From Nitrospira sp. SB0677_bin_15 (GTDB taxonomy: Bacteria > Nitrospirota > Nitrospiria > Nitrospirales > UBA8639): 64,000 bases of DNA. Location: contig VYFB01000068.1 in assembly GCA_009842645.1 (NCBI GenBank), forward strand, positions 10,904 to 74,903, given 5' to 3'. How positions within the stretch are numbered: the stretch's first letter is position 1; every line of letters begins with the position of its first letter. The notes under the pieces were generated by a model. That model was not told the origin of the DNA. It saw only the letters and a program-made list of their open reading frames with translations, and did no database searches. Shown in pieces: positions 9,252-36,241 of the stretch. The translations under genes were made by a program, and so were the position numbers.

Positions 9252-9262
9252 GATGGGGTCTA

Positions 9263-9982
9263 TCAGGTCGTCTTGAAAGCAGGCATTTGATTCCACGTTT
9301 TTTTGTCAAGCACGCGGCCTGTCTGTTTCTTGAACACGCCGCCCCACTGCTTGAAGAAAAACGGGATGCGGCTTCGCAGGCAGTTGTCTCGTATTTCCCG
9401 CACCCAATCCGCCTTCATGGGGCGGGCACCGGGTCCTGATTCTCCGCCTACGATCACCCAATCGATTCCTGCCAAGTCCAAGCCGCGCAACGGCCCCAGT
9501 AATGGTTCGAGAGACAGGAATTTCGTTTGGGCGTTGGATTTTTTCAGTTTTGCCAATCGGTCGAGCCACTCTTTGGATTCGATGCTCGTGCCCAGCCAGA
9601 TATTCGGCGTCCAAATCAGTCCAGGGTCGAGTTTCATGACTCGGTCCGGGCGCTTCGTGAGCATCTGAAACGTATGCTGGGATGCCTGATTCATGACACG
9701 GAACACTGAATCGATAAATGCAGCGGGGACGGATTCGTGGAACAGGTCGCTCATTGAGTTCACGAACACAAGCCGCGGTTTTTTCCACCTGAGAGGTTCT
9801 TCCAGTACGGACTCGTGAATTGTGAGGTCGAACCCGTTCCGGTATTTTTCAACCCCCATTGCTTGGAGCCGCGTGGCCATTCGCTCGGCGTAGCAATGCT
9901 TGCAGCCGTCGCTGATCTTTGTACAGCCCGTCACCGGGTTCCAAGTAGCCTCAGTCCATTCGATGCTCGACTGCGTTGACAT
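9263..9982 (-). CDS. DUF5131 (phage Gp37/Gp68) family protein
   Basis: [36 protein letters not shown] is the family's characteristic N-terminus. Start set at ATG 9980-9982; the longer track ORF adds 49 aa of non-family sequence. Confidence 0.75.
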
Positions 9983-10130
9983 GGCTACATGTGCGTCAGG
10001 ATGTACTCTGCGATTTGGATATTTGCTGGATCGTTTTTCACAATCGTATCGCCATCTTACCGTGCCGGTACTTCTTTTGAAACCGTTTCCTGGCATGTGT
10101 GGAGCCTGTCCGGTGTTGGTTTCCCTCATA

Positions 10131-21836: not shown

Positions 21837-24647
21837 TTACGCGGCGGTTGCGCGTGAATGGCGCGCCAGGATATCAAGGATGTCACCTGGAGTCTTGGAC
21901 ACGGCCCAAGTCCAGCGACCGAAGCCGCCATGCGCGTTGACGGCGTTGACCCATTCTTCGAGAAACCGGCGCTTGGTTCGGTCTTGCTCGCTGTCCTGAC
22001 CCTTGATTTCCAATATCAACATGTCACCGGACGTGAGCCTGATGAGAAAATCGGGCCGGTATTTCCGCACCACGCCGCGATAGACGTAGAGCACCTCGAA
22101 GCCGAGGTGATCGTTTTTCACCCAGGCCGCTACCGCGGGGTTGTGATCAAGCTCGAAGGATTCTGACGCTTCCCACGTACTGTCATAGACACAAAAATTG
22201 ATATGACTTTTCGCGGTATGCTCGCAGGGCTTACCGGTGTACCATGTCCCCATGTCACCGGTTGAACGGATGGGATGGTCGCGATCAAACACCGGCTCCA
22301 GCTTCTCGGTATTCTCGAAGCGGATTGCTTCCCAGATGTGTTGGACCACCTTGGTCATATTGAGCGTAATGATGAGACGGCGCTTGAGATCGTCGTGAAC
22401 GAATAAGGCGGGAGTGACGTTGATTCGATCCGAACGAATGAACTGCTCGACCAGCCGAACCAACTGGGCCAGCAGGAAAGCCTTACCACCCTGCCAGTTC
22501 GTCTGCATTTGGTCGTAAACATCCCGAGCGGTTTCGAAGATGATCCGTTGAGTTCTGAATTCCTTTGCCAGTTTTCCCAGATCGATAGCCCCGATTTTTG
22601 TAACGTCCGGTTTGCCCTCGACAACCGAGGCAAGCTCCGCAAGTTTGGCTGTCTGGCTGGCGTCGAGTTCCAAGGTCGTCACCCTTTCCAAATCCAGGGA
22701 AAGGTGCGGGTGGTAGACGTGGTCAATACGGATGACGTTCGGCCAGGAAATTTCAAAAGCCGCTTTGTCCGCTACCGGCTCGATAGCCGTTTTCGGTTTC
22801 GGTGGTTCCGGGATGACGCCCTCCGCCGACTCATGCGGCAGGAAAGTGAACGGCACACCGAAAATATTGACGTGCTCCGGTTTGAACAAGCCGGTGTCCG
22901 GGTCGGCCTCGTAGGCGGTCCGTCGCAAGCCGCGTCCGACGACCTGCTCGCAGAGCAACTGACTGGTAAAGGCTCGCAAACCCATGATATGGGTCACGGT
23001 CTTTGCATCCCAACCCTCGGACAACATCCCCACGGAAATTACCTTCTGTATCTGCTCGCCGGGTTTTCCCACTTGGCCGACGGTGTCCACTTGCAAGCGC
23101 AGTCGCTCGGCTTGTTGTTTTTTGGTCAACTTCGGTTTTTGGTCGTCGTCCCCGCCTTCCTTGCTTTCGTCGGCAGCGATCTCTGCAATCGGCTCCTCGG
23201 CGGCCTCGGCTTGCCCCAGTACCTTGGAGTCGATGTGCAAGGTGCGTTCCGGATCGCAAAGCTCGTCGATGTGGACCTTACGGTGATCCAGCGCATACTT
23301 GATTCGAGCCGCAGTCTCGGTTCGGTTGGCGACCGTAATCATGACCGGCGGCGTCTTGAATCCGGTAGCGTCCCAATCCTTGGTGGCTTCGCGCCAGTCG
23401 TACCCTAGCAGGTAATAACCGTTCATGACCAAATCCGGCAGCGGTTCTTCGGGCTTGGCTTTCCTGGTCAAGTCGTCTTTGACCTCCGGGTCGTTGTAGA
23501 TATGGTACAGGCGGGATTTGTAGGTCCTGGCATCAGGCACCGCGTCGTCGCGAATCACGACGCGCGGGGTCTTGACCAATCCGGATTCAATGGCATCGTT
23601 CAAGCCGAAGTCACTCACGATCCAGTCGAACAATGCCTCCTCGGAACTCCGTTTGCCTGATGGCGCAAAAGGCGTGGCGGAGAAGTCGTAGCAAGTGAGA
23701 ATGCCACGTGCCTTGTTTATCCGGTCGAGACCGCCCACCCACTTGGTCGCTTCCTCGATGTCCTCCTTGGCAACGCCTCTGACCTTGGATTCGGCGGGAA
23801 CCCGCCAGGCGTGATGCGCCTCGTCGTTAATGACCAGGACGTTCCGGGCACTCGCCAAGTCGTCCAGCACTTCGCGGACGTAGGCTTCATCGCTCTTGGT
23901 TCCGCGCTTATCCACGCTACGCTTTTTGTCGATCTTCTCCTCGGTTTCCCGGTTGAGCGCGTGCCAGTTGCGGACGATAACCTTGCCTTGGCGCAGTTTG
24001 TCCAGCAGGGACGACGGCACAATGGAGAACTTTTCATAATAGTTTTCCGAGTCGGACGGTTCGAGCACTGCAAGACGGCTTTTAACCGTCAAGCCGGGGG
24101 CAATGATCAAAACATTCCGGGCAAATCGCGCATCCTGCGGATAGGTCACCTTGTTCAGGATATGCCAGGCGACGACCATGGCCATGACGATGGTCTTGCC
24201 CGAACCGGTCGCCAGCTTTGCGCACAAACGTTGGAACGGCCCGCCGTCAGACTGAGGCTCCACGCCGACCTTATCGGCGGCGGACGCTTCCGCAAGCCAG
24301 ATCAGCGTCTCGGCAGCTTCAAGCTGACAAAAGAATAACCGCCGATTATCGAACTCTTCAGGGTTTGTCCAATGTTCCAGCAGTCGCTTCGTGATGCCCG
24401 TGACGCCCGGATACCCGGCTTCGCGCCACGCCCGTACGCGTGGCCGGATCAGATTGACGAGGGGAATTTCAACGAAATGACCTGGGTCATCGAACGATCG
24501 GGAGCCCTCCGAGGCAATGACGTATCCGGCCGGCCGCCGGTCTTCCACAAGCGAGAAAGTGCGTTGCTCATGGTCATAACTCCAGTACTTCGTTGGTTCC
24601 TCGTAAGGTGAGTTGATGATGAGGCGGTCAATAGTCGCCCGTGCCAT
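21837..24647 (-). CDS. res: Type III-like restriction enzyme Res subunit (SF2 helicase + C-terminal PD-(D/E)xK)
   Basis: 936 aa. KLATGSGKT, INDEAHHAW, C-terminal YRPDFLIRL...LILEIKG nuclease motif. N-terminus IINSPYEEPTKYW is typical of this Res family. Confidence 0.85.
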   Translation of the reverse strand: MARATIDRLIINSPYEEPTKYWSYDHEQRTFSLVEDRRPAGYVIASEGSRSFDDPGHFVEIPLVNLIRPRVRAWREAGYPGVTGITKRLLEHWTNPEEFDNRRLFFCQLEAAETLIWLAEASAADKVGVEPQSDGGPFQRLCAKLATGSGKTIVMAMVVAWHILNKVTYPQDARFARNVLIIAPGLTVKSRLAVLEPSDSENYYEKFSIVPSSLLDKLRQGKVIVRNWHALNRETEEKIDKKRSVDKRGTKSDEAYVREVLDDLASARNVLVINDEAHHAWRVPAESKVRGVAKEDIEEATKWVGGLDRINKARGILTCYDFSATPFAPSGKRSSEEALFDWIVSDFGLNDAIESGLVKTPRVVIRDDAVPDARTYKSRLYHIYNDPEVKDDLTRKAKPEEPLPDLVMNGYYLLGYDWREATKDWDATGFKTPPVMITVANRTETAARIKYALDHRKVHIDELCDPERTLHIDSKVLGQAEAAEEPIAEIAADESKEGGDDDQKPKLTKKQQAERLRLQVDTVGQVGKPGEQIQKVISVGMLSEGWDAKTVTHIMGLRAFTSQLLCEQVVGRGLRRTAYEADPDTGLFKPEHVNIFGVPFTFLPHESAEGVIPEPPKPKTAIEPVADKAAFEISWPNVIRIDHVYHPHLSLDLERVTTLELDASQTAKLAELASVVEGKPDVTKIGAIDLGKLAKEFRTQRIIFETARDVYDQMQTNWQGGKAFLLAQLVRLVEQFIRSDRINVTPALFVHDDLKRRLIITLNMTKVVQHIWEAIRFENTEKLEPVFDRDHPIRSTGDMGTWYTGKPCEHTAKSHINFCVYDSTWEASESFELDHNPAVAAWVKNDHLGFEVLYVYRGVVRKYRPDFLIRLTSGDMLILEIKGQDSEQDRTKRRFLEEWVNAVNAHGGFGRWTWAVSKTPGDILDILARHSRATAA

Positions 24648-24738
24648 TACGTCACCGCCGGCAGGAACAGCAATGGTTCAAGAAGGAAAATCAAAACAGA
24701 AAGATACATCTTACGCAGTTTATGGGGCACATCCAGAA

Positions 24739-25308
24739 TCACAAGGCCAAATCAGCAAAAGCCACTATAGGTCCCAAAAATTTCTTAATGTTAATACCCT
24801 CGTACCGTTCCTCTTCTATCTTTCCTGGCCTGCTTTTCACGGGCTGTTTATCAAGTCTCTCGTTTATTCTCTCACCGATAAGAACGTAACTCATACTTGG
24901 CGTCGGAATCGTTTCTCTGCTTTCAATGCGGCAAACAGCGAGGAGATACCCCAGTAGCGGACGTGATCTCCGTAACTGTTCTTTAGGATGACGGTTTCCA
25001 CCCAGAGTTTTCTTCAATTCGATAAACATCGCATGATACGCTTCTCCATTTTAGTAGATCAGCAGATAATCGCAGATCTTTTTCCAATCTCCCGTTTTCA
25101 GAACTGACAAATGGCCAAATTTCCTGGTGAACTGAATCGTGGTGAGAGAGTCAGGAACACCCGAGACGACCACTATCATATCTGGCTGGTTCTCATTTTT
25201 CTCCCGAAGAGTGATGTCGTTGCTGGTATTTGGTGCTGTTGCCAGAACCTTTCCATCCAACACGTTCTCTATCTGGAAGTTCAGAGTCGCCTTACCTTTC
25301 TGCATCAT
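24739..25308 (-). pseudogene. PD-(D/E)xK-like partner of the ABC ATPase, interrupted by one in-frame TAA
   Basis: ORFs 25051-25308 and 24739-25029 are in the same frame, separated only by TAA (25051-25053). The joined reading ...ICDYLLIY*NGEAYHAMFIELKKTLGG... has a D...ExK pattern. It aligns with CCDYFVTNNDSVFLIEETQ and the shared QPDM of the 47978-48445 protein. ATGA overlap with the ATPase stop. Confidence 0.55.
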
Positions 25309-26879
25309 GACTCAGTACCCCTCACTCGAGATGCCAGTTCATTCGAAGCACGGTTGATTTTGTCGATTGTTGTGTCAAAAATCGGCATTTCTACGCCAAA
25401 TTTATCTACTGCACATTTGGTTAGGCGGTTCTCTTCCGCGACGTACCCTCGAATTGAATCTGGTTCAAGGAAATCGTCTTCCTTATACCCAAGCTTCCTC
25501 ACCACTTTGTCTTTACCCTCAAAGGAGTTGCTTAGCATGATGAGATTGTTGATTTCCTTCACGAGATAGTCACTGTGAGTTGTAATCAAAACTTTCAAGC
25601 CAGTCCGTACCAATCGAGCCAACAGTCGTGCCAACAGAATCTGGTTGGTTGTATCGAGATGACTCTCCGGTTCGTCGATAATGAGGAGGTGATTTTTCTG
25701 AGCGACGTGACGTAAGAAGAAATACAAGTCGGACAACCCACGTGCCGAAGAGGAAGCAAGATGAAGCGGTATGCTGAAGCTGTGTTCTTTGTTGCGTGTT
25801 GTGGATTTGAATTTGATATCGTCACCTGAGCTTTTATAGTAACCCCTTATCATATCCTTTATCTCGTCAAACAACTTGTGTTCATGAAGCTCACTTGTCT
25901 GCTTTTGGAAATCAGATAAATTTCTGGTGTAATCAATGTTGTCTTTGATGGGAAGAGCATAGCGGCTGGTGGTTTTGTCGATCAGGAAAAATGGAGAAAA
26001 GTGCTTTCTGTTTTTTTCAGCTCCCACCTTCTGTAGCAAATCCACCAATTGATTCTTAGTAAAGTCGAGTTCTTTGTAGAAGAGCGAGATGCCAAATCGT
26101 TCAGCAGACAGGACGAATGGAGCCCAAAAAAGCTCTGGAAAGAGAAACCGAAGATAAAGGCGTGGAATTAAGAATAATGCCTCGTCGTCAAAGGATGAGT
26201 TGTGTTGCTTCTCAGTGCGGTCTCTGGTTAGAACAATTTTTTCACCGTTGTATCGTATGGAAAACACGTCTCCCGATGGAAATTTTTCTTCAAGAGAATG
26301 ATTTTTGGGAAACTCACCAATCAACTCAACGTTGAGCGAGGCTCTTTTGAAATCATCTGGTGAAGAACTGAACACACCATAAAGAGCTGTTTTTGAAAAA
26401 CTTTGGGCCAAACTCTTAATCACTTTCTTTCGTTCTTGATCAAGATTCTCTCGATCTATGGTCCATGTGGCTTGGCCTTCCTTCATTGCTCGCCGGACCA
26501 ACATCCCTATTCTTTGCGGCAAGTTGCGCCATTTGTCGTGCAGCGGCTTCCCTTCTTTCCCGCTTCCCACATCCTCAACGTACTCGTCTTCGTCGGCGTA
26601 ATGCTCTCGATCGGGATACTCATCATCAGGGTCGGCCTCATTTGTGTCGTCATTCTGCGCGATGTCATCGTTGCCTATAAGAAAATGTCTAGCATTTGGC
26701 CACGAGTACCACATTTTCAAGAAGCCGTATAGCGTATATACTAGATACGTCTTGCCCGTATTGTTACAGCCAGCAACGATTGTGAGATCTCCCAATTCCA
26801 ATTCAGCGTGATTAACGGGACCAATATCTGTGAATAGAAATTTCACTGATGGAGACTGATGATTGTTGGTGGGCTCCAT
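25305..26879 (-). CDS. ABC-type (AAA_15/AAA_21-like) ATPase
   Basis: 524 aa. Walker A AGCNNTGKT, acidic insert NDDTNEADPDDEYPDREHYADEDEYVED, signature-like SSSARGL, Walker B LLIIDEPESHLD, H-loop ITTHSD. AT-rich. Confidence 0.75.
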   Translation of the reverse strand: MEPTNNHQSPSVKFLFTDIGPVNHAELELGDLTIVAGCNNTGKTYLVYTLYGFLKMWYSWPNARHFLIGNDDIAQNDDTNEADPDDEYPDREHYADEDEYVEDVGSGKEGKPLHDKWRNLPQRIGMLVRRAMKEGQATWTIDRENLDQERKKVIKSLAQSFSKTALYGVFSSSPDDFKRASLNVELIGEFPKNHSLEEKFPSGDVFSIRYNGEKIVLTRDRTEKQHNSSFDDEALFLIPRLYLRFLFPELFWAPFVLSAERFGISLFYKELDFTKNQLVDLLQKVGAEKNRKHFSPFFLIDKTTSRYALPIKDNIDYTRNLSDFQKQTSELHEHKLFDEIKDMIRGYYKSSGDDIKFKSTTRNKEHSFSIPLHLASSSARGLSDLYFFLRHVAQKNHLLIIDEPESHLDTTNQILLARLLARLVRTGLKVLITTHSDYLVKEINNLIMLSNSFEGKDKVVRKLGYKEDDFLEPDSIRGYVAEENRLTKCAVDKFGVEMPIFDTTIDKINRASNELASRVRGTES

Positions 26880-26914
26880 GGTGTGTTCCTTTGTATGGTG
26901 AACGTCAGATAACC

Positions 26915-26989
26915 TGCAATCTTTGTCATCCTCAGGCTTTTAAAGTCCTGATCGTCAATGACTTTGACCATGATGCGTTTGTACTCACC
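26915..26989 (-). other. Relic of a Mod C-terminal coding end (copy 3, decayed)
   Basis: Reverse-strand reading GEYKRIMVKVIDDQDFKSLRM..., compared with the mod end SGENKRIAVKIIDDRGIESLKIIEVE*. Confidence 0.55.
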
Positions 26990-27293
26990 GACCTCACGTA
27001 GATCGTCTCAGTGGATTAGAGAATCGCCTTGCGGCGGATGTAATTCTGGATCTGTTCAACACCCTGCCAACTGACAAGATCAACTTTGCATTCGAATATC
27101 GTCGCCAACTCTGCCTCCATCCAGGTTATGTCGAATAGAGTATGAGGGCTTCTTCCTCAAAACGTGCCAACCCGTCCATGTCGCTTTCGGGAGACCGAAA
27201 TCGTCTTGTAGCGAACAGGGCCAGTTCTGTCACCTGCCACCGTATACAAAAGGCGGCGATTTCGTCTTGCGGTATGGTCACTTGTGAGTTCAT
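26990..27293 (-). pseudogene. Decayed MntA-type nucleotidyltransferase (second copy)
   Basis: Nucleotide-similar to 28593-28903. It reads MNSQVTIPQDEIAAFCIRWQVTELALFA... An 8-nt deletion removes the GS motif codons, then a -1 shift and TAA follow. ATG overlaps the DUF2235 stop (ATGA). Confidence 0.65.
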
Positions 27294-28476
27294 TGCTTTG
27301 CCGCTTTAGTCGATTTTGGAATTTTGTATTCCCGTAACCCGCTGATTCCTTCTATCTTGTTGCTGAGGTTGCCGTTATTCAATAGTAGTTTGAAACTGAG
27401 TCCGCGCAGTGCTGGTGGCCGGTAGCCGGTAACTTTATCAAATCGCTCTTTGACGCATTGATACAGAATAGGGAGGTCATTTAGATTCTTGCTTGGTCGG
27501 TCATTGACGTTGACCCGAATCATGCGAGGTTCCTGAGCCCCGATTTCTGTCAGCAAGCCTGAATGAGTGTGCAAAATGCCTTGGATCATCGGATTGATCG
27601 CAATGTCGTCTACGGTCAGCCCCGCCATCGCTTTGCCTTGTTGTACAAGCAAATTCTTGATACCAGCTTGATTACCTGGTTTTATAGCAATATCTTTACC
27701 CAAAGTCGCTTCGCACTGTTTGATCATAAACCGAAGCGCTTGATCAGACAGTCCATCAAACCAATAACCCCCACCAATATCGCTGTGGACGCCGGGGAAC
27801 CAGACCTCCAAAATGCGGTCTGGGTTCTTCCCATCCTTGTTAATTAGCGTTGGATCAAAAGGCACGCGGTCTTCATCAAGTGATACGATGTGCACAGCCC
27901 GCTGCACTCGTGCATTCAAAGTACCATTCTCGAACACCACGTCGCTACTAATCTTCTCACCTTTTCGGTGTATGCCGTTCATGGCGGCGACGGTGTCGAA
28001 TACACCCAAGAAAGAGACGGTGCACTTATTCTTGTCGTTAAGGATCTGGCTGACGAATTTCCGAGCCAATGCCGCACCTCGGCTAAAACCAAAACCACGA
28101 TTCGATCATTGTCCTCATAACATTTCTCGAAATCATTTCGTGCCTCGCGAAGAATCCTGGCTGCGTCCCCCCATTTTGGTGCCACAGTCATATTTACGAA
28201 CTTCTGAGCTTTTGAGATCAGCCAACCCACCAACGGGACCCATTGGCCGTCTTCACGGGTACCGATGCCGTTGTAGTAGTGAGTTATCTGATCCTCGCCG
28301 TTTAGTGTTTTTGTCGAGGAGTTGTCGGCCTCTATTCCTCCACCCATCAGGATGTGGAGTTTGAGTACGTTGCTTACACTTTCATCTTCGGCAAACTGTT
28401 TGGCATCGCTCGGTTCATTACCAGTGCCGTCAAAACTAAAAACGAGAGTTTTGTGTATCCGTTCGTTTTTTGACAT
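27290..28476 (-). pseudogene. DUF2235 (Tle1-like alpha/beta hydrolase) gene with a frameshift
   Basis: N-terminal part (27979-28476) reads LVFSFDGTGNE...YYNGIGT. C-terminal part (27290-28069) reads ARKFVSQ...GVFDTVAAM...FPGVHSDIGGGY. The frames join if the run aaaa at 28091-28094 (tttt on the coding strand) gains one base, restoring RIVVFGFSRGAALARKF. Confidence 0.75.
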
Positions 28477-28514
28477 TGGTACTCTCCTATCAAGCCCTTT
28501 GTTATTATTGGCCC

Positions 28515-28592
28515 TCACTCTATCTCCACAATCTTCAAACTCTCGATGCCCCGGTTGTCGATGACTTTGACAATGCTGCGTTTGTACTCACC
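28515..28592 (-). other. Relic of a Mod C-terminal coding end (copy 2)
   Basis: Reverse-strand reading GEYKRSIVKVIDNRGIESLKIVEIE* (TGA at 28515-28517). About three quarters nucleotide identity to 29790-29867 by eye. Confidence 0.65.
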
Positions 28593-28903
28593 GACCTCAC
28601 GTAGATCGTCTTGGCGGATTGGAGGATAGATTTGCGGCGGATGTAGTTTTCGCTCTGTTCAACGCCTTGCCAACTCACAAGATCAACTTTGCGTCCGAAT
28701 ATCGTCGCCAACTCTTCCTCCATGCGGTCTAGATCGAACAGGGTATGTCGGGCTTTTTCCTCAAAACGTGCCAATACGTCTACGTCGCTTTCGGGACCGA
28801 AATCGTCGCGTAGCACGGAACCGAACAAAGCCCGTTCCGTCACCCGCCACCGTTTACAAAAGGCGGCGATCTCGTCTCGCGGTATATTGATATGCGCGTT
28901 CAT
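28535..28903 (-). CDS. MntA-type minimal nucleotidyltransferase (no HepT partner)
   Basis: MNAHINIPRDEIAAFCKRWRV..LFGSVLRDDFGPESDVDVLA (GS...DxD pol-beta NTase motif). ATG 28901-28903 overlaps the TIR-like gene stop (ATGA). The last ~20 codons read out of frame through the Mod-end relic. Confidence 0.75.
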   Translation of the reverse strand: MNAHINIPRDEIAAFCKRWRVTERALFGSVLRDDFGPESDVDVLARFEEKARHTLFDLDRMEEELATIFGRKVDLVSWQGVEQSENYIRRKSILQSAKTIYVRSVSTNAALSKSSTTGASRV

Positions 28904-29790
28904 GCCTGAAATGCCCGGTTCGCGTCGACTGAGATTCCGGTGGTCTTTAGCTCTTGAATAAGTTTTGACTGCCAACCTCCAGAGGCATCCAATGGAATGT
29001 ACACAACGCCCGCATAATCAGATGGTATCTCCACGTCTCCCTTGGTCAGGGCGCAGACGCCCTCTCGGCCAAGCCGTCCGATGAAAAACCCCAATTCGAA
29101 AATCACGTTCTGTCGTGCCCGTGGGCTGAGGTTGTTCCTGTCGCTCTGAAGCGAACCGGCATCGTCGGGTGTCAGCAAAGCTACGGCAAACTGCGCATCC
29201 GCATGATATTCGAACTTCTCGATGATTGTGCGGCCCGCATTCGGTTGTTCCTGAAGTATCACTGGCTTGAGACCCAGTTTTTCTAGGAATCTCGACACTT
29301 GATCTCTGGTGCCTTCATCTCTGCCGTGAATGACAAAGACTTTATCCGAATTTGGTGGGGCGTTTATTAGTGCCCCCGAAGATTTTAGCGTCTGCTCTCC
29401 GTCTTGCTGTTTTTTCTTTCGGGTCCTAGAAGACGTTCTCTGATTGTCATCTTCCCAATACTCCTCGACCTCTTTAATCATCGATTCTAGGAATGACGCC
29501 GCTAATTCCAATCCCCTAACGTAGGCTTCTTGGCACACAGAAGGGATCGATAACATGTCAAGGAACACATCATCAGGAGTATCCCATGTCTTTGTTGGAT
29601 CATAATTGATATTGTTGAATCGATGAATCTGGGCTGAGTCGTCCCCAAAGGTATTGCTGATGGCGAGCCCTGTATCTATTTTCCACCCCTCAAACTGCGG
29701 TGAATCATAAGATAATTGCTTCAATTCAGGTATCGCATCTAGGACCTCCTTCAGACGTTCTATCGCCTTGGCTTTGGGCTGTCGCGCCAT
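28900..29790 (-). CDS. TIR-like (CAP12/PycTIR-type, PF10137-like) domain protein with an unassigned N-terminal domain
   Basis: C-terminal KVFVIHGRDEG...FAVALLTPDD...RARQNVIFELGFFIGRLGR...PSDYAGVVY matches the TIR-like nucleotide-binding family. ATG 29788-29790 overlaps the mod TGA by 1 nt. Confidence 0.72.
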   Translation of the reverse strand: MARQPKAKAIERLKEVLDAIPELKQLSYDSPQFEGWKIDTGLAISNTFGDDSAQIHRFNNINYDPTKTWDTPDDVFLDMLSIPSVCQEAYVRGLELAASFLESMIKEVEEYWEDDNQRTSSRTRKKKQQDGEQTLKSSGALINAPPNSDKVFVIHGRDEGTRDQVSRFLEKLGLKPVILQEQPNAGRTIIEKFEYHADAQFAVALLTPDDAGSLQSDRNNLSPRARQNVIFELGFFIGRLGREGVCALTKGDVEIPSDYAGVVYIPLDASGGWQSKLIQELKTTGISVDANRAFQA

Positions 29791-32378
29791 CACTCCACCT
29801 CGATGATTTTCAAGCTCTCGATGCCCCGGTCGTCGATGATTTTGACCGCGATGCGCTTGTTCTCACCTGACACAAAGGGCAGGGAGGTGGTGCCGCGATA
29901 GGTTTCGATCAGGTCCGTGTCGATTTCGGCTTTGAGGTTCTTGGCAAGTTTCGCCCAGCCGTCTTCGTCACCGGCCATGGGGAAAAATACCTGGCGGGGG
30001 AACAGACTGCGCCCGTCATAGTCAGGGTCCAGCATCCACATGGCAATCCTGTCCCTGCCGCCGGATTCCACGTTGCCGGTTTTGGTGTTGTAGTAGTCGA
30101 AACCTCGGACCGAGACACGGAGCTTGCCTTTGTCCTCCCTATCCGGGACCCCTTCAAGTTCCACGTCCGGCTGGCCGATTAGCCAGAAGCTCTCGTTGCT
30201 TGCGCGCTTTTTCTTGAGGTCATTGGTCAGCAGGTCGGCGTTCATCTGTGCCTTCAACAGTGTGACGCCGGGCCAGTTGGTCTCGTCGATGTCCTTCGCC
30301 GCCTCGGGGTCGAACTGGAAGGCTGCGAAAATAATGATCGTGGGCTTGGGAACAAGGGTCTGAGCTTCCTCAATGGCGAGGGCTACCTGCCGTTGTTCCA
30401 TCGGCGCGTGGTCCGGTCCGAACGAGATCACCACGCGTTCGGGATTCTCGGCTGTTCCTCCGTCACGAATGCGATCCGCGCCGGTGCTATCAGGCCGGGT
30501 TTCTCCCTCGGCGTGCAGCCATCTGGTGCCCGGCAATGGCTCCAACCGCGCAAACGAGATGCGTTGCCCTGCCTTGCCACGTATGCCGGTTTTGAACAAC
30601 TCGTCGCGCCAATCAGCTTGCCGTAGAGTCTGTCCTGTACGCGCCACGGAGTGATCCGCGGGCTGTTTATCGACGATTTCGTCCAAAGGCTTCACCGCTG
30701 GAGCGGGAACCGCTTCGACCGTGAATGGTCCGGTGACACGTGTTTTGGTCTTGTCCACTAGCGGCTGGTCATGGCGCGTTATGGCAGAGGACGGCTCTTC
30801 GTTTGCTAAAATTTTGGGCGAAACTTTGGGGACAGTCTTATAATTGAAGCCACTCCCTACGCCTTCTTGGGAATGAGCCAATTTGTAGTAGTCGTAAACG
30901 GAAGTCATCAGGCGCTGTTTGGTCAGAGTGAGGGCCACCCGGGAGGTATCGCAAGTGATCCAGCGACGGCCCCATTGCTCGGCAACGTGAGCGGTGGTGC
31001 CGGAGCCGCAGGTGGGGTCAAACACCAAATCGCCCGGGTCGGTGGTCATTAAAATGCAGCGTTGAATTGCTTTGATGGAAGTCTCTACAACATATTTTTT
31101 TTCACTTGGAAACATCTGTGCGGGCCAGATGTTGTTAATTCTTCGGCCCGGCACTTCATCTTCGTATTTCTTCCATCTGAGTGAATCCTGTCCCTCCAAG
31201 GCTTCCAGTCGTCCCAATTTCGCCAGTTGATCCAATCCCTCCGGATTGGAAATAGACCACTGTCTATTCTTAGCACAGTGAAAAGTTCTGTTGTTGTACA
31301 CATAGGGTTCCGATCGCCCGGTAGTGGAAACACCTTGCGAATCCAGACCGGTGCGTTCATACAGACGCGCGCCTAGGGGCAAATATCTGTCAGGATCGAA
31401 ACGCTCTTCGTCGGTTGGCTTTCGACAACTTCCGTCGGGTAATTCCACCATGACGTGCCAACTGAAGTAGTCAATGATTTCCGTGCGGGTCAGGGTCTCA
31501 TACAATTGCCGATACTTCACGCGGTCCTTGTCCTTTGCGTACCACAGCAAATAATCGGCTACTTGTGGTAAGTGAGCCGTAGAACTGCCACTCGTCGTCG
31601 CGAAGGATATGGTCGCCACCCGATTTGTCGAACCAAAAACATCATCCAAGACCATACCTGCACGGTGCACGTTCTCATCGCCAATCTGCACAAAACACGA
31701 TCCACTATCCACTAACAACTCTCTTGCCAACAACAGGCGGTCCCTCAGATAAGCAAGATAAGAGTGGATGCCGAGTTCCCATGTATCGCGGAAAGCGCGG
31801 ATGGTCTCCGGCTCCTGGGTCAGATCCTCGTCCTTGCCGTCGGTCACGTCTCGTTTGTTCACAAACGGCTGGAAGTTCGAACCGTAGCGGATGCCGTAGG
31901 GCGGGTCGATGTAGACCATCTGGACCTGGCCGCCAAGTCCTTCCTTTTCCAACAGGCTGTTCATGACCAGCAGACTGTCGCCTGCGATCAGGCGGTTGGT
32001 CCAATTGTGCCGGTGTTTGTAGAACTCGATGGCTTGGCGGATCGGCGGGTTTTCTTCGGGCGCGGCGAACAGCGCCATTTGCGGTTTCGCGCCATTTCGT
32101 TTCCGCACGGCTTCGACAATGGTGCGCGGGTCGATGCGCTCGTGAACGTGAAGCGAGACGGTCGGTACTTCGAAGGACGTGTGCTCCGCCTTGCCGGCCC
32201 ATTGCAGTTGCGGATCAAGGTGAGGATCGTAGGCGTAAGTCTTCTTGCCTGAATCCCTGTCCGTATCCGGCGTCACCAAGCCAACCGGCGGATTGTTCAC
32301 GCGCTCTTTGTCAGTATGCGCGTAAGTCTCGATGTCCCTTTTCGCGCTCTTCTTAGGACTTTTCTTTGGCTTCGCCAT
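29790..32378 (-). CDS. mod: Type III-like DNA methyltransferase (beta-class N6A/N4C)
   Basis: 862 aa. VYIDPPYG (motif IV) precedes FDPTCGSGTTAHVA (motif I). Confidence 0.9.
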   Translation of the reverse strand: MAKPKKSPKKSAKRDIETYAHTDKERVNNPPVGLVTPDTDRDSGKKTYAYDPHLDPQLQWAGKAEHTSFEVPTVSLHVHERIDPRTIVEAVRKRNGAKPQMALFAAPEENPPIRQAIEFYKHRHNWTNRLIAGDSLLVMNSLLEKEGLGGQVQMVYIDPPYGIRYGSNFQPFVNKRDVTDGKDEDLTQEPETIRAFRDTWELGIHSYLAYLRDRLLLARELLVDSGSCFVQIGDENVHRAGMVLDDVFGSTNRVATISFATTSGSSTAHLPQVADYLLWYAKDKDRVKYRQLYETLTRTEIIDYFSWHVMVELPDGSCRKPTDEERFDPDRYLPLGARLYERTGLDSQGVSTTGRSEPYVYNNRTFHCAKNRQWSISNPEGLDQLAKLGRLEALEGQDSLRWKKYEDEVPGRRINNIWPAQMFPSEKKYVVETSIKAIQRCILMTTDPGDLVFDPTCGSGTTAHVAEQWGRRWITCDTSRVALTLTKQRLMTSVYDYYKLAHSQEGVGSGFNYKTVPKVSPKILANEEPSSAITRHDQPLVDKTKTRVTGPFTVEAVPAPAVKPLDEIVDKQPADHSVARTGQTLRQADWRDELFKTGIRGKAGQRISFARLEPLPGTRWLHAEGETRPDSTGADRIRDGGTAENPERVVISFGPDHAPMEQRQVALAIEEAQTLVPKPTIIIFAAFQFDPEAAKDIDETNWPGVTLLKAQMNADLLTNDLKKKRASNESFWLIGQPDVELEGVPDREDKGKLRVSVRGFDYYNTKTGNVESGGRDRIAMWMLDPDYDGRSLFPRQVFFPMAGDEDGWAKLAKNLKAEIDTDLIETYRGTTSLPFVSGENKRIAVKIIDDRGIESLKIIEVE

Positions 32379-32383
32379 GGTTC

Positions 32384-32402
32384 ATCCTCAGATATTGAGG
32401 AT
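32384..32402. promoter_or_regulatory. Perfect 7-bp inverted repeat overlapping the mod ribosome-binding site
   Basis: atcctca-gatat-tgaggat, 6-24 nt upstream of the mod ATG. On the coding strand the GAGGA of the right arm is the likely SD. Confidence 0.3.
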
Positions 32403-32503
32403 TCTACAAGACCAGGAATCTGCCGCTAGGCTATGAGAACGGTTGCTCTTCATTCTTGGTGTGAGGAAATGAGGGGCATGGTCGTTTTTTCTGTCATCCC
32501 GTT

Positions 32504-32923
32504 CTAAGAGGTATTTCTCTTCATGAGAACGGTGTATCCATCTTGCTCAAAATGGTGGTCATTAGTCAGGATCTCTGTAATTGATTCCGAATCCATAGCG
32601 TTCATGGAAATACAATCTTGTAAACTATATCCTTTGTCAGGTCGTTCCTCGTATCGCCTCAGGCCCCTTTGAAAGGAATCTCGGGATTGGGGAATAACTT
32701 TTACATTTGGATTACCTAAAATCCCGCGAACGACTCGTACCACTATGTCTCGCAAACGCGGCCTTTTTGATAGAGCTGTCAAAAATTCCGTAAGTACCTC
32801 CTCCGTGGTCACAAGCCGTGCATTTCCCAATTGTTCCCGTGCATCTTCCGCCGCTTGTCTCCATTGGTCTTTTGGATTTGCAATTGCAATCCAATATACG
32901 GTGTCCACAAACACTTTTTTCAT
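32504..32923 (-). CDS. PIN-domain ribonuclease (VapC-like)
   Basis: 139 aa. Acidic quartet context FVDT, TTEEVLTEF, LQDCIS, TNDHHF. ATGA overlap with the upstream ORF. Confidence 0.8.
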   Translation of the reverse strand: MKKVFVDTVYWIAIANPKDQWRQAAEDAREQLGNARLVTTEEVLTEFLTALSKRPRLRDIVVRVVRGILGNPNVKVIPQSRDSFQRGLRRYEERPDKGYSLQDCISMNAMDSESITEILTNDHHFEQDGYTVLMKRNTS

Positions 32924-33846
32924 TCTTCTTCCCCGCCGTACAGATAATGGTCCAATCTATCCGTAAGGTCGGGGGGGAGCCTATCCCACTCCTCATCTGG
33001 TACGTCTTTGGCAATCTTAGCTATTACATCCTCAATGCGCGGAGCGCTTGAATCGAAAATCGGATCTTCATCCCTGACAAGCTTGAGGCTATCCACATTG
33101 ATGATTCGCTTTAGCGTTCCTTGCGGAGTAAATTCACCATGGCCTCGTACTGCGAGGTGCACAAACTGGTGTTCCTTGAGAGCGGTTGTCACTTCTGATT
33201 CCTGCTCTTCCGTAAATGTAACGAAAGCATTCGTTCGTTCGTCGAGCCAGATCTGAAACTTTCTTTGCCGGACATCGGCTTCAAGGACACGCCCAGTTAT
33301 ATTTACTTCGTCTTCATATGGCTGCTCGGCCAACTCTCTTAGACGCTGACGTTCAAGCTTTGCAACTTGCGCTGGATGATTCCCACGCTGTGCGAATCCT
33401 AACGCATCATTCTCTGAGAGACTTTCTCCCCAACGAGCGTATTCAGGTAGAAGTTCCTTTGGACATTCTTCTGGTAGCTGTGTGTTGTCATGAACTGCTC
33501 TGAACACACGATAGATAACATCTACGGCTTCGGTTAGTTCCCGAGCTATTTCTGGTTCCTGGTCCAAGTAGTCGAGTTGCACCGGCTCTTCAATAGACAC
33601 TTCGAGTGGAATGACGGTGCTGCCGTCTTCGATCGTGCGGAAGCACAAACGCGTTCGGTCTTCAAAGTTTGACGGCAATCGTTCACGACCTGGATTTGTC
33701 CTCCGCCAAATGACTTTGGCCGTCTCGGCAACCATCTTCTGGAAGTGTTCGAGTTCGCGCAGTGCGGTGAGATCAAGTGCGTGATCGCTGAAACGTTCGC
33801 CATGGAAGTGCAGTCTTACCACTTCTTTCCATTGCTTGGTCATCAT
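32920..33846 (-). CDS. Hypothetical 308-aa protein in antitoxin position upstream of PIN
   Basis: Long ORF with ATG-ATG at 33841-33846, overlapped by the TGA of a Mod-end relic. No recognised domain. Acidic C-terminal tail ...DEEWDRLPPDLTDRLDHYLYGGEEE. Confidence 0.6.
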   Translation of the reverse strand: MMTKQWKEVVRLHFHGERFSDHALDLTALRELEHFQKMVAETAKVIWRRTNPGRERLPSNFEDRTRLCFRTIEDGSTVIPLEVSIEEPVQLDYLDQEPEIARELTEAVDVIYRVFRAVHDNTQLPEECPKELLPEYARWGESLSENDALGFAQRGNHPAQVAKLERQRLRELAEQPYEDEVNITGRVLEADVRQRKFQIWLDERTNAFVTFTEEQESEVTTALKEHQFVHLAVRGHGEFTPQGTLKRIINVDSLKLVRDEDPIFDSSAPRIEDVIAKIAKDVPDEEWDRLPPDLTDRLDHYLYGGEEE

Positions 33847-33920
33847 TTCACCTCCCCCACCTTGAGGCTAATTCCACAGTCATCAATGCCCTTCACAACG
33901 ATGCGCTTCAATTTGTTCAC
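33843..33920 (-). other. Relic of a Mod C-terminal coding end (copy 4)
   Basis: Reverse-strand reading VNKLKRIVVKGIDDCGISLKVGEVK*, with its TGA overlapping the ATG of ORF308. Confidence 0.5.
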
Positions 33921-33944
33921 GGGCGGGAGCTGTTTCCGCCGGAT

Positions 33945-34187
33945 TTATTCGTCATCATCGTCGTCATCTTCATCCTCGGCTTCCAGGGCGGCTTGGCGCA
34001 TTTGTTCTTCCATGGCGTTGTGGATCAGCATCCGGATGAACATCGAGATGACGGAGCCTTTTTCCAGTGTCCCGCCGGGCGGGACGGCGATCCGGCCTTC
34101 TTCGACCATTTTGTCCAACCATTTTTTCTGGTCGGGGGTCACGTGGAGTGGAATTTCAATGAGCGGAATCTTGCCGAACATATCCAT
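33945..34187 (-). CDS. Small protein, possible ribbon-helix-helix fold with poly-acidic tail
   Basis: 80 aa from ATG 34185-34187, preceded by AAGGAGG. IEIPLHVTPDQKKWLDKMVEEG..., tail EAEDEDDDDDDE. Confidence 0.45.
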   Translation of the reverse strand: MDMFGKIPLIEIPLHVTPDQKKWLDKMVEEGRIAVPPGGTLEKGSVISMFIRMLIHNAMEEQMRQAALEAEDEDDDDDDE

Positions 34188-34207
34188 AAGACAACCCTCC
34201 TTATTCA

Positions 34208-34351
34208 AGGAACCTCTGATTTAATGCACTATCGGGCGCATGGCTGCGTTGTGTCCTCGCTCAACCTTCACCTATCTCTATGATAAGCCTCAGGTTTCGC
34301 TCCGGGACGCCTTGCCCTGCATCCCGCTATCACAATAAATCAGAGGTTCCT
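34208..34351. mobile_element. 144-bp MITE-like element (copy 1) with perfect 16-bp terminal inverted repeats
   Basis: aggaacctctgattta ... taaatcagaggttcct. The interior is near-identical to 46264-46395. Confidence 0.65.
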
Positions 34352-34375
34352 CAATAACAAACAAAAATAAATGCG

Positions 34376-35191
34376 TTAACGGGATAATCTGAGCACGTCG
34401 GCCATGCCGTACAGGCCCGGGGGCTGATGGACGACCCACTCTGCGGCGCGCAGGGCGCCGTGCGCGAACGGGTCGCGGTTGTGGGCGCGGTGCGTGATCT
34501 CGATGCGTTCTCCGGGTCCGGCATAGAGCACGGTATGGTCACCCACGATGTCTCCGGCTCTCACGGTCTGGATGCCAATTTCGTTTTTCGTGCGTTCCCC
34601 GATGAGGCCGTGACGTGCGTAGACTCCCGCTGCCTCCAGGTCCCAGTCTTTGGCCGCGGCCAGGACTTCGGCGAGTTTCAGCGCGGTGCCGCTCGGTGCG
34701 TCCTTCTTTTTGTTGTGGTGCGCATCAATGATTTCGAGGTCGTAGTCATCGCCGAGTGCTTGAGCCACCTTTCCGATTATCCGGAGCAGCACCGTAATCC
34801 CGACGCTCATGTTGGGCGCCTGAACGCAGGGGATCGACTCTGCGTGTTGGCGAAGTTGGTCCATGTCGGTAGAAGACAATCCCGTGGTGCCGATGACCAT
34901 GGCCCGTTTGTGCTGGACGGCTTGCGCCAAATGGTGCAGTGTGGCTTCCGGTGCGGTGAAGTCGATGACGACGTCGCTTTGGGACAAGGCCTGCGTGAAG
35001 TCGTCCGTCAACGCGACGCCGAGCGGTCCGCAGCCGGCCACGTCCCCGGCGTCTTTGCCGAGGGCCGGGTGTCCTTTTGCTTCCGTAGCGCCGGTCAGTT
35101 GCAGCCGGGCCGATTCGTTGACAAGGGCGACGAGGCGTTTGCCCATTCGTCCGGCGGCGCCGGTGATCGTGACGTTGATCGGGGAATTCAT
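34376..35191 (-). CDS. dapB: 4-hydroxy-tetrahydrodipicolinate reductase
   Basis: 271 aa. VTITGAAGRMGK Rossmann motif and HHNKKKDAPSGTA motif. Confidence 0.92.
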   Translation of the reverse strand: MNSPINVTITGAAGRMGKRLVALVNESARLQLTGATEAKGHPALGKDAGDVAGCGPLGVALTDDFTQALSQSDVVIDFTAPEATLHHLAQAVQHKRAMVIGTTGLSSTDMDQLRQHAESIPCVQAPNMSVGITVLLRIIGKVAQALGDDYDLEIIDAHHNKKKDAPSGTALKLAEVLAAAKDWDLEAAGVYARHGLIGERTKNEIGIQTVRAGDIVGDHTVLYAGPGERIEITHRAHNRDPFAHGALRAAEWVVHQPPGLYGMADVLRLSR

Positions 35192-35308
35192 AACGCAATC
35201 GGGTGAGGTTCAAGGAGCCTGCATGCCTGGGTTGGCCCAGGGCAACTACGAGATCCTTCGCTTCGCTCAGGATGACAACTCTCGGAAAACAGGGGAGCCG
35301 TCATGGCG

Positions 35309-36181
35309 TTAGAGTAACCCGGTCTCTTTCATGACCTGCCGGAGCCGTTCACGGTTGTCCGGCGACATCGGCGTGAGCGGGAGCCGAAGTTCGGGTTCGA
35401 TTTTGTTCATCATGGCCAGGGCTTCTTTGACCGGAATGGGGTTGGTCTCATAGAACAGGGCATTGAACAGCGACGCGAGTTTGAAATGAGAGGCGCGCGC
35501 GTCGGCAACGTTTCCGGCCAGGGCGGCGTTCACCAGAGCGGCCATGTCTTTCGGCGCCACGTTGGCGGTGACTGTAATCACGCCCTTGGCTCCCAGCGCC
35601 ATCATCGGCAGGGTCAGGGAATCGTCGCCGGAGAGCACGGTCAAATCGTCGCCGCATAGGTGAATGATGTCGGAGACTTGCCCCAATGACCCGCTGCCTT
35701 CCTTGATCCCCACCACGTTTTCGAGTTTGGCAATCCGCGCAATTGTGGCCGGGGTCATGTTCACGCTGGTACGCCCAGGTATGTTGTAGAGGATCAATGG
35801 CAGATCCACGGCCTTGGCCACGGCCGCATAGTGTTGATACAGGCCTTCCTGTGTGGGCTTGTTGTAATAGGGCGTGATGAGGAGCGCGCCGTCCGCGCCG
35901 GCCTGTTTGGCGTGGGCGGTAAAAGCGATCGCTTCGTCCGTGGCATTCGAGCCGGTGCCGGCAATCACCGGGACTCGCCGGTTCACAACCTCCACGGTGA
36001 ACGCCACGACGTGCTCGTGTTCTTCGTGCGAGAGCGTGGCGGATTCCCCCGTGGTCCCGCAGGGCACGATGCCGTGCGTGCCGTTGGCGATTTGAAACTC
36101 GATCAACTCGCGATACGCGGTTTCGTCGAATGCGCCGTTCTTGAACGGGGTGACGATAGCGACTAGAGATCCTGAAAACAT
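35309..36181 (-). CDS. dapA: 4-hydroxy-tetrahydrodipicolinate synthase
   Basis: 290 aa. GTTGESATLS, YNIPGRT, and active-site lysine context VGIKEGSG. Confidence 0.92.
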   Translation of the reverse strand: MFSGSLVAIVTPFKNGAFDETAYRELIEFQIANGTHGIVPCGTTGESATLSHEEHEHVVAFTVEVVNRRVPVIAGTGSNATDEAIAFTAHAKQAGADGALLITPYYNKPTQEGLYQHYAAVAKAVDLPLILYNIPGRTSVNMTPATIARIAKLENVVGIKEGSGSLGQVSDIIHLCGDDLTVLSGDDSLTLPMMALGAKGVITVTANVAPKDMAALVNAALAGNVADARASHFKLASLFNALFYETNPIPVKEALAMMNKIEPELRLPLTPMSPDNRERLRQVMKETGLL

Positions 36182-36241
36182 CGTGCGGCCTTTGGTTGTA
36201 AATATATCGGAGTAACTGTGCGGGACGGCTTGCGTCCGCGC

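Follow-up and report, generated by a model that had tools for sequence, protein, structure and literature searches.

Organisation of the locus

The window, a stretch of 64,000 nucleotides from contig VYFB01000068.1 of Nitrospira sp. SB0677_bin_15, carries two adjacent genes, designated here A and B, in the interval that separates mod from res in a type III restriction-modification (R-M) system (Table 1). Gene A encodes an ABC-type ATPase and the small gene B is divided by one stop codon. An earlier note on this DNA, made without database searches, had described the pair as an ABC-ATPase with a small module of restriction-endonuclease fold (PD-(D/E)xK-like), and this description was right. Three ORFs were found as it had listed them; translation put the two small ones in one frame with the TAA as the sole stop between them, and gene A ends in an ATGA that it shares with the start of B.

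Table 1. Features of the A-B pair and of the genes around it, in window positions.
Feature	Position	Strand	Remarks
Type III restriction subunit Res	21837..24647	(-)	936 aa; directly downstream of B; Pfam ResIII, PADLOC REase_III
Gene B, PD-(D/E)xK-like putative effector	24739..25308	(-)	PDC-M47B / PD-T4-4_B family; 189 codons, pseudogenised by one nonsense codon
3' ORF of B	24739..25029	(-)	96 aa
Second derived change in B	24949..24951	(-)	GAG to GGG (E120G), linked to the stop; E is the majority residue in close homologues
E97-L98-K99 codons (ExK motif)	25012..25020	(-)	Downstream of the stop; strand 90-101 of the model
5' ORF of B	25051..25308	(-)	85 aa
In-frame TAA, codon 86 of B	25051..25053	(-)	From CAA (Gln); C-to-T on the coding strand, window base 25053
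D80 codon (CDY motif)	25069..25071	(-)	Putative metal-binding Asp; upstream of the stop; start of strand 81-87 in the AF2 model
A stop / B start overlap, ATGA	25305..25308	(-)	Predicted translational coupling, read from sequence
Gene A, ABC-type (AAA_15/AAA_21) ATPase	25305..26879	(-)	PD-T4-4_A / PDC-M47A family; 524 aa, apparently intact
Acidic insert of the ATPase	26505..26654	(-)	About residues 76-125, after the Walker A helix; lineage-specific
Duplicated MNT fragment	27126..27293	(-)	Cargo between mod and A
Tle1-like hydrolase, frameshifted	27290..28518	(-)	Cargo between mod and A
MNT-type nucleotidyltransferase	28535..28975	(-)	Cargo between mod and A
TIR-like PDC-S35 gene	28900..29793	(-)	Cargo between mod and A
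Type III methyltransferase Mod	29790..32378	(-)	862 aa; upstream; Pfam N6_N4_Mtase, PADLOC MTase_III 1.8e-156

The ATPase encoded by gene A

Among the PADLOC profiles, gene A matched PD-T4-4_A over nearly its full length (E 1.2e-105) and PDC-M47A (2.7e-88); the Pfam matches were AAA_15 (6e-20) and AAA_21 (5.5e-14), and a search against PDB sequences returned only generic ABC transporters at about 1e-5. The Walker A (AGCNNTGKT), Walker B (LLIIDEPESHLD), signature and H-loop (TTHSD) motifs are kept in relatives; Walker A, Walker B and the THS of the H-loop had already been pointed out. ATPases adjoining homologues of B share 51-64% identity with gene A, and nine contigs encode a protein identical to it. 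The acidic insert, which had likewise been singled out as unusual, is missing from each of the four homologous ATPases (463-491 aa) that were aligned, and the PADLOC profile alignment of gene A skips across it from profile position of about 47 to 61.

Gene B and its family

The joined B protein matched PDC-M47B at 4.9e-7 over residues 23-129, a region that spans the stop, with another PDC-M47B match at 9e-5. Its match to the PD-T4-4_B profiles was weak (E 0.007-0.03), and the alignment again runs across the stop. An intact orthologue, P0001, gave 2.8e-7 with PDC-M47B and 5.7e-4 with PD-T4-4_B, and within an alignment of 76 family members PDC-M47B was matched by 71 and PD-T4-4_B by 54 (best E 9e-8). 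Judged by profile similarity, B is a divergent subfamily nearer to the candidate system PDC-M47 than to canonical PD-T4-4_B. The earlier note had been unable to place the pair in a named defence system; the PADLOC matches, PD-T4-4_A / PDC-M47A for the ATPase with PDC-M47B and PD-T4-4_B for the small protein, put it in a system that is already catalogued.

The search for intact orthologues and for their co-occurrence with the ATPase, which had been proposed as a check, yielded about 125 homologues of B. Nearly every one is a single protein, mostly of 175-200 aa though some were called shorter, and the nearest has 189 aa and is 96% identical. Metagenome-assembled genomes from many phyla carry the subfamily, among them lineages characteristic of sponge symbionts. 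Related loci were searched for with an alignment of 15 sequences as query. In all 54 loci examined, the ATPase or its remnant lies directly upstream of B in the same direction. A motif scan of these loci found CDY..ELK unbroken in 49; as to the remaining five, in three the gene was missed by the scan or the motif differs, and two (L056 and L057) are truncated remnants. No intact homologue of B was found to be organised as two adjacent genes. The single-protein homologues bear out the claim that the two small ORFs are one gene, cut between the D and the ExK.

Reading across the stop is thus supported by the intact orthologues. The other support that had been offered for it, a paralogue of B at 47978..48445, did not hold, as no significant similarity was found: BLASTP gave an E value of 2.3, single-sequence hhalign a probability of 0.4%, and profile-profile comparison a probability of only 25% (E 7.5e-4 over 47 columns including CDY..IE). 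The QPDM block said to be shared by the two is not a conserved part of the B family, in which M44 alone comes close to invariance, and the two blocks do not line up when the profiles of the two families are aligned. The gene at 47978..48445 belongs to a second ATPase-plus-effector pair, likewise decayed.

Predicted fold of B

In the alignment of 76 homologues, no variation was seen at C79, E97, L98, K99, Q111, S115 and P117, and at least 90% of the sequences keep D80. The spacing of the acidic residues is D80-x16-E97 and not the D-x17-E reported before. An AF2 model of an intact orthologue (pLDDT 86.6, pTM 0.86) has a beta-beta-beta-alpha-beta core, in which a hairpin of strands 81-87 and 90-101 is followed by helices at 106-130 and a strand at 138-147; the stop codon falls inside the hairpin. 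Foldseek searches with this model against PDB and BFVD gave no match at E <= 0.001, the best being 0.05 in PDB and 0.009 in BFVD; the lists, which hold weak matches only, are enriched in restriction endonucleases, VRR-NUC, Mrr and UL24. Nothing was matched when the joined protein was run against Pfam and NCBIfam, and a PDB sequence search with the B-family profile gave zero matches at E up to 1. At the motif, weak but specific profile similarity to PD-T4-4_B and Shedu SduA was seen. As Foldseek, Pfam and PDB returned no significant match, the assignment of a nuclease fold is based on the motif, the topology and the classification of relatives in the literature. On these grounds the core of B appears to be a variant PD-(D/E)xK-like one, in which the model places D80 and E97-x-K99 on a beta-hairpin next to a helix with conserved Q111/R/S.

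The absence of significant matches in the Pfam and structure searches would also agree with a small protein that lacks catalysis and serves the ATPase as adaptor or regulator, or that is some other toxin, its PD-(D/E)xK motif being coincidental. We consider this highly improbable, because conservation that is complete or nearly so across the 76 diverse homologues falls precisely on the D, ExK and Q positions, these sit on the hairpin-plus-helix core, and the profile likeness to PD-T4-4_B and SduA, weak as it is, falls on the same motif. Furthermore, mutation of the motif lysine in the relative WonB abolishes both defence and toxicity (PMC12137116).

The nonsense codon in B

Codon 86 of B reads CAA in five related loci (L001-L005), namely in four sibling contigs whose ATPase is 100% identical to that of the window and in one 94%-identical relative, and TAA in the window, L006 and L061. 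The two other assemblies with TAA are Logan SRR9841436 and ENA ERZ23491927, which were made by different pipelines but possibly from the reads of the same sample. It is accompanied within 840 bp by four linked derived substitutions, E120G in B and R26H, R28Q and M145L in Res, whereas over the 11.8 kb upstream the sibling assemblies are identical to the window, with zero derived changes. Since siblings with an identical ATPase read CAA and two other assemblies read TAA, the stop is most likely a real nonsense allele at the level of the strain, as far as the assemblies tell, and not a site of read-through.

That the TAA is instead a sequencing or assembly artefact, and that the strain has an intact and functional B, seems very unlikely to us. 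A single base is concerned, the source is a metagenome-assembled genome, and the siblings that are identical across the 11.8 kb read CAA, all of which could be expected of an error. However, the codon is repeated in the Logan and ENA assemblies, and its linkage with four derived substitutions gives the pattern of a haplotype rather than of random error.

The earlier note had named decay, error and read-through as possible origins of the stop. Of these, decay has held. Stop-codon reassignment and read-through were rejected, since TAA works as a regular terminator in the window, closing 13 of 49 long ORFs, and since sister strains have CAA. More generally, a split B could still work through read-through or suppression, or by re-association of an 85-aa and a 96-aa fragment, the second being started from the ATG at 25029. 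This ATG follows the stop and has a distant Shine-Dalgarno-like GGAG 12-17 nt upstream, and the rest of the frame is undamaged save for one missense change. Still, functioning of the split form is extremely unlikely: none of the intact homologues consists of two adjacent genes and the truncated genes of L056 and L057 are remnants, the TAA is an ordinary terminator here, codon 86 encodes Gln in the nearest strains, and re-initiation at M94 would drop hairpin residues 86-93 and part D80 from the ExK. The strain-level nonsense allele is therefore retained as the reading of the stop and, as the nuclease gene is intact in sister strains, the window shows ordinary gene decay and not a new system.

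Targeted inactivation of B was also considered and was rejected, the two changes in B alone being within background. The five-change cluster in B and Res is non-random in position; that all five changes are non-synonymous is, taken alone, not significant. That the five derived changes lie only in B and the N-terminal part of Res might be a trace of selection that disarmed a coupled restriction/abortive module, although we regard this as unlikely.

Relationship to known systems

PD-T4-4 comes from E. coli ECOR58 and was discovered in E. coli through functional selection (Vassallo et al. 2022, PMC9519451). The literature counts its B protein among the PD-(D/E)xK proteins and treats the A protein as a P-loop/ABC ATPase (PMC10952713; bioRxiv 10.1101/2025.07.10.664194; bioRxiv 10.1101/2024.01.29.577857). 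The window pair resembles it as a two-gene operon with an AAA_15/AAA_21 ABC-type ATPase first and a small PD-(D/E)xK-type protein second. It differs in the extra acidic insert of about 50 aa in the ATPase, in a B that bears only a weak resemblance to the PD-T4-4_B profiles and is a pseudogene in the window strain, and in its setting, since it sits inside a type III R-M operon in a sponge Nitrospira and not in an ICE-like element of E. coli. PDC-M47, a candidate in PADLOC-DB v2, supplies the best profile for B and a strong one for A; it is a purely bioinformatic candidate, and the window copy is broken.

Phage challenge data come from E. coli PD-T4-4 and from WonAB (PMC9519451, PMC12137116). 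The functional picture comes from WonAB, the best experimental model, which was found in the WASA-1 prophage of Vibrio cholerae and is related to PD-T4-4 according to its authors (PMC12137116). It too combines an ABC ATPase with a small variant PD-(D/E)xK nuclease, and the kinship of the window pair with it is taken from that description; WonB, at 16 kDa, is the smaller protein. WonAB depends on its ATPase motifs as well as on the lysine of the nuclease, WonB is toxic only in the presence of WonA, and the infection is aborted via translation shutdown with both proteins required (PMC12137116). The same authors report that ATPase inserts and C-terminal extensions vary among WonAB-like systems (PMC12137116). 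Operons of an 'OLD-ABC ATPase + novel REase' (Krishnan et al. 2020), as far as they are presented in PMC12137116, have the same architecture as the window pair.

PARIS (AriAB), Gabija (GajAB), OLD and Septu have in common with the window pair the superfamily of the ATPase. Gene A matched AriA at 1e-19 and GajA, Old and PtuA at 1e-7 to 1e-10, far more weakly than PD-T4-4_A. The effectors of these systems are, in contrast, Toprim or HNH nucleases, fused or separate. A Toprim domain was not found in A or B with Pfam and PADLOC profiles, the AriA, GajA and Old matches being confined to the ATPase, and an HNH domain is absent from the window pair.

By its sequence features, namely the profile match of A, that of B (weak for PD-T4-4_B) and the adjacency with A upstream, the pair belongs to the PD-T4-4 / PDC-M47 family; the two genes are not both complete, B being interrupted at codon 86. 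Taken together, the locus very probably represents a PD-T4-4 / PDC-M47 family two-gene system, related to WonAB, in which B has been disarmed by the TAA and which is carried as cargo between mod and res. By analogy with WonAB, a dimer of the ATPase would hold and control the nuclease and, once infection is sensed, would license it to cut nucleic acid so that the infection is aborted, both proteins being needed. The change of CAA to TAA at codon 86 would end translation inside the catalytic hairpin; with the stop at this place, D80 would be split from E97-x-K99, the effector would be non-functional and the module disarmed. Intact B appears to be retained by sister strains of the same sponge-associated Nitrospira population.

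Position between mod and res

Nesting of A-B between type III mod and res was found in the window and in 12 of the 54 related loci. Loci of the mod-A-B-res type are labelled Nitrospirales, Caldilineaceae, Binatia, Versatilivoraceae and others, and three Binatia loci have the bare mod-A-B-res unit. Many of the lineages bearing mod-(cargo)-A-B-res are known from sponges. It seems unlikely that the A-B pair is more than mere cargo, that is, a recurrent and functionally integrated accessory of this type III R-M cassette. The pattern of an embedded defence has already been described for Hma, BREX, DISARM and type I R-M, and the position of A-B between mod and res adds type III R-M to it.

The analysis corrects the view of this module. 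What had seemed unplaceable belongs to a catalogued defence family, and its stop would be a strain-level knockout rather than recoding or a new split nuclease. A toxic defence effector thus appears to show presence/absence-of-function polymorphism within one symbiont population.

Layout and reading frame of genes A and B

The start codon of B, a small nuclease-like gene, overlaps the stop codon of A, an ABC-type ATPase gene, as ATGA. Translation of 24739..25308 in a single frame gave 189 codons with one internal stop, ...KICDYLLIY*NGEAYHAMFIELKK..., and B residues are numbered in this joined frame. The observation of the earlier note was confirmed as described, since the ORFs of 524, 85 and 96 aa, the shared frame, the single TAA and the ATGA overlap are all present in the sequence, and the ATPase motifs it cited are found in A and conserved among relatives. 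The poly-acidic stretch of A (approximately residues 76-125) is likewise present and is an insertion, missing in four homologous ATPases of 463-491 aa. Two details needed correction: the D and E of B are separated by 16 residues rather than 17, and the "QPDM block" does not characterize the B family.

Features of the window discussed in the text
Feature	Position	Strand	Remarks
Type I R-M operon	within 3437..10129	-	hsdM 491 aa, hsdS 526 aa, hsdR 936 aa
PDC-M41B/PDC-M30B candidate gene	9263..10129		E 1e-113 to 1e-116
Site of DUF4143/AAA_14 gene in siblings	21221..21783		gene absent here in window
Type III Res	21837..24647		one flank of A-B pair
B C-terminal ORF	24739..25029	-	96 aa; ORF listing
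B internal stop	25051-25053		TAA
B N-terminal ORF	25051..25308	-	85 aa; ORF listing; comes after A
A ORF	25305..26879	-	524 aa; ORF listing
MNT copy upstream of A	26954..27275
ORF with this MNT copy	27126..27293		55 aa
Tle1-like/DUF2235 gene	27290..28518	-	179 aa + 259 aa
Other MNT copy	28557..28885
Type III Mod	29790..32378		other flank of A-B pair
PIN-domain gene	32504..32923	-
PDC-M32A-like gene	32920..33846	-	308 aa
DUF4143 ATPase	46539..47711
Second ABC-ATPase + small-protein pair	47978..49735	-	decayed
Second-pair small protein	47978..48445
Second-pair ATPase, two frames	48974..49735 + 48442..48960

A search with the joined B product returned 125 homologues, most of them 175-200 aa long and some called shorter. 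Nearly all are single proteins, and the 85-aa and 96-aa ORFs had therefore been read rightly as one broken gene. The nearest homologue, P0001, is an intact orthologue of 189 aa (96% identity, 100% query coverage), and Gln occupies the stop position in the nearest orthologues. In the alignments C79, E97-L98-K99, Q111, S115 and P117 were invariant, and D80-Y81, R113/R114, Y121 and D153-K154-Q155 nearly so. A motif scan found the CDY...ELK stretch unbroken in 49 of 54 genomic loci, which comprise the loci of four diverse B homologues and 50 from a scan of species-representative genomes. The scan took a wrong-frame ORF in L029 and L030, where tblastn gave a single match each; L044 has ELE instead of ELK, and L056 and L057 carry truncated B remnants. 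Co-occurrence with the ATPase held: the four diverse homologues (39-63% identity) each lie immediately downstream of an AAA_15/AAA_21 ATPase, and an ATPase or ATPase remnant was found by tblastn directly upstream of B in 54/54 loci. Among the labels of the host MAGs are Nitrospirales, Caldilineaceae and other Chloroflexota, Latescibacterota, Binatia, Vicinamibacterales, Poribacteria, Dadabacteria and Poriferisodalis. Many of these lineages are typical of sponge symbionts, and the strain of the window belongs to a sponge-associated Nitrospira population.

Family assignment and the second pair

Pfam matches of A were to AAA_15/AAA_21 alone, the joined B product had no Pfam match, and an NCBIfam search added nothing specific. 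Against PADLOC-DB, A matched PD-T4-4_A (E 1.2e-105) and PDC-M47A (2.7e-88), the AriA, GajA, Old and PtuA profiles being much poorer matches. Joined B matched PDC-M47B (4.9e-7, residues 23-129), weakly PD-T4-4_B (0.007-0.03, residues 71-167) and faintly the Shedu nuclease core (residues 78-101), and all these alignments span stop position 86. PDC-M47B was matched by 71 of 76 B-family members and PD-T4-4_B by 54 of 76 (best E 9e-8). PD-T4-4 is a two-gene system recovered in E. coli through functional selection (PMC9519451), with a B protein classed as PD-(D/E)xK and an A protein classed as an ABC/P-loop ATPase (PMC10952713; bioRxiv 10.1101/2025.07.10.664194; bioRxiv 10.1101/2024.01.29.577857), and WonAB of V. 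cholerae was described as kin to PD-T4-4 and to "OLD-ABC ATPase + novel REase" operons (PMC12137116). From these matches and this literature, the pair is already catalogued, an outcome listed beforehand in the earlier note as refuting its claim of novelty. The architecture, an ABC-ATPase with a small PD-(D/E)xK-like protein, had been recognized correctly; the statement that it could not be placed in a named system was wrong. The A-B locus thus belongs to the known PD-T4-4/PDC-M47 family, as a divergent member that has become pseudogenised.

The small protein of the second pair had been taken as a paralogue of B supporting the reading across the stop. Its similarity to B was not significant (BLASTP E 2.3; single-sequence hhalign probability 0.4%), and profile-profile comparison of B with a 28-sequence alignment of that small protein's own family reached 25% probability (E 7.5e-4, 47 columns including CDY...IE). 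It was rejected as a paralogue on these values and therefore gives no support to the B reading frame, although the profile similarity may represent remote homology of the nuclease core. The ATPase of this pair is split over two frames (an intact relative has 455 aa), and the small protein stops at 155 of ~187 aa, followed by repeat-like GC-rich sequence. The C-terminal half of the ATPase has HEC-02A and NsnB as best PADLOC matches, and the DUF4143 ATPase adjoins the pair. In the family of this second small protein CDY...IEET...K100 is invariant, and the family may be distantly related to REase-fold proteins.

Predicted structure of B

The AlphaFold2 model of the intact orthologue, built from an alignment of 76 sequences, had a mean pLDDT of 86.6 and a pTM of 0.86. 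It begins with strands 32-38, 41-49 and 55-59 and helix 65-69, continues with strand 81-87, preceded directly by D80, and strand 90-101 carrying E97 and K99, and ends, after this hairpin, with helices 106-113 and 116-130 (Q111, R113/114, S115), strand 138-147 and a C-terminal sheet. The model is compatible with a PD-(D/E)xK core, and stop codon 86 falls inside the hairpin bearing the putative catalytic residues. The truncated 85-aa product would be without ExK, and a re-initiation product from M94 would be without D80. Foldseek found no significant match for the model in PDB or BFVD; among the weak matches, REase-fold proteins were enriched (Bse634I, N.BspD6I, FokI, BamHI, Upx, DdmD, VRR-NUC, Mrr, UL24). 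The predicted PD-(D/E)xK fold of B is thus supported but not proven.

The in-frame stop among sibling strains

The exact A protein was present on nine contigs. In four of these (two ENA scaffolds and the NCBI MAGs GCA_009843795.1 and GCA_009841415.1) B was called as one 189-aa protein, and DNA alignment showed CAA at the window's TAA and one more difference in B, GAG to GGG in the window (E120G). The Logan assembly of SRR9841436 was 100% identical to the window across 3,987 bp, TAA included, and an ENA scaffold from SAMN12347678 had the same 85-aa + 96-aa split; an assembly error is unlikely. Read-through was rejected on the sibling CAA and on the use of TAA as an ordinary terminator, ending 13 of 49 long ORFs in the window. 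The TAA is most simply read as a genuine nonsense allele carried by a separate haplotype of the population.

Compared with the sibling contig L003, the window had zero differences across 25054..36879 (11.8 kb), then five changes inside 840 bp (24215..25053): Q86* and E120G in B, and R26H, R28Q and M145L in Res, the last adjoining the helicase Walker A. All five are non-synonymous or nonsense, and outgroup comparison showed five of five window states to be derived. The next 2.07 kb had no change; beyond it, a divergent patch covers the res 3' end and further, and flanking gene content differs too. The cluster could be a recombination patch, or could result from local relaxed or positive selection. 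Just downstream of res, siblings carry a PDC-S01-like DUF4143/AAA_14 ATPase gene (L002/L003 15094..16584) that the window lacks at this site, where the res 3' end diverges (~30 differences within 360 bp); the pattern resembles an indel or recombination junction peculiar to the strain.

Surrounding defence genes and proposed role of the pair

Between the flanking Mod and Res genes the pair is accompanied by a TIR-like PDC-S35 gene, an MNT nucleotidyltransferase and a frameshifted Tle1-like hydrolase. Of the 54 related loci, 12 show the mod...A-B-res nesting as well (L007, L010-L012, L015, L018, L031, L033, L037, L046, L048, L053). They come from several phyla, and three of them, in Binatia, are bare mod-A-B-res without other cargo (L033, L046, L053). 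Defence genes embedded within multi-gene defence systems have been described (bioRxiv 10.1101/2024.01.29.577857). Functional coupling between the pair and the type III R-M cassette that repeatedly encloses it is conceivable but, on the evidence so far, unlikely.

The Tle1-like alpha-beta hydrolase gene consists of two overlapping ORFs in different frames. This split was called identically in all sibling contigs, and the frameshift therefore predates the B nonsense mutation. The MNT region is duplicated (~330 bp, 83% identity). Because one copy sits just upstream of A, and an MNT gene immediately precedes the ATPase in L010 (also with HepT), L038 and L040, the arrangement suggests insertion of the Tle1-like gene into an older MNT-A-B order. 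Elsewhere, the type I R-M operon is complete-looking, with GC of 0.46-0.49 in its region against ~0.57 in the flanks, and one gene there matches PADLOC candidates. Upstream of mod lie the PDC-M32A-like gene (PADLOC candidate, 6e-46) and the PIN-domain gene, which make the defence island longer.

In WonAB, mutations of the ATPase motifs and of the nuclease lysine each abolish defence, and WonB toxicity requires active WonA (PMC12137116). By analogy, we infer that intact members of the B subfamily follow the same logic: the small nuclease would be the effector, and the ATPase both its sensor and its licensing factor, and in the strain of the window the module would be disarmed.
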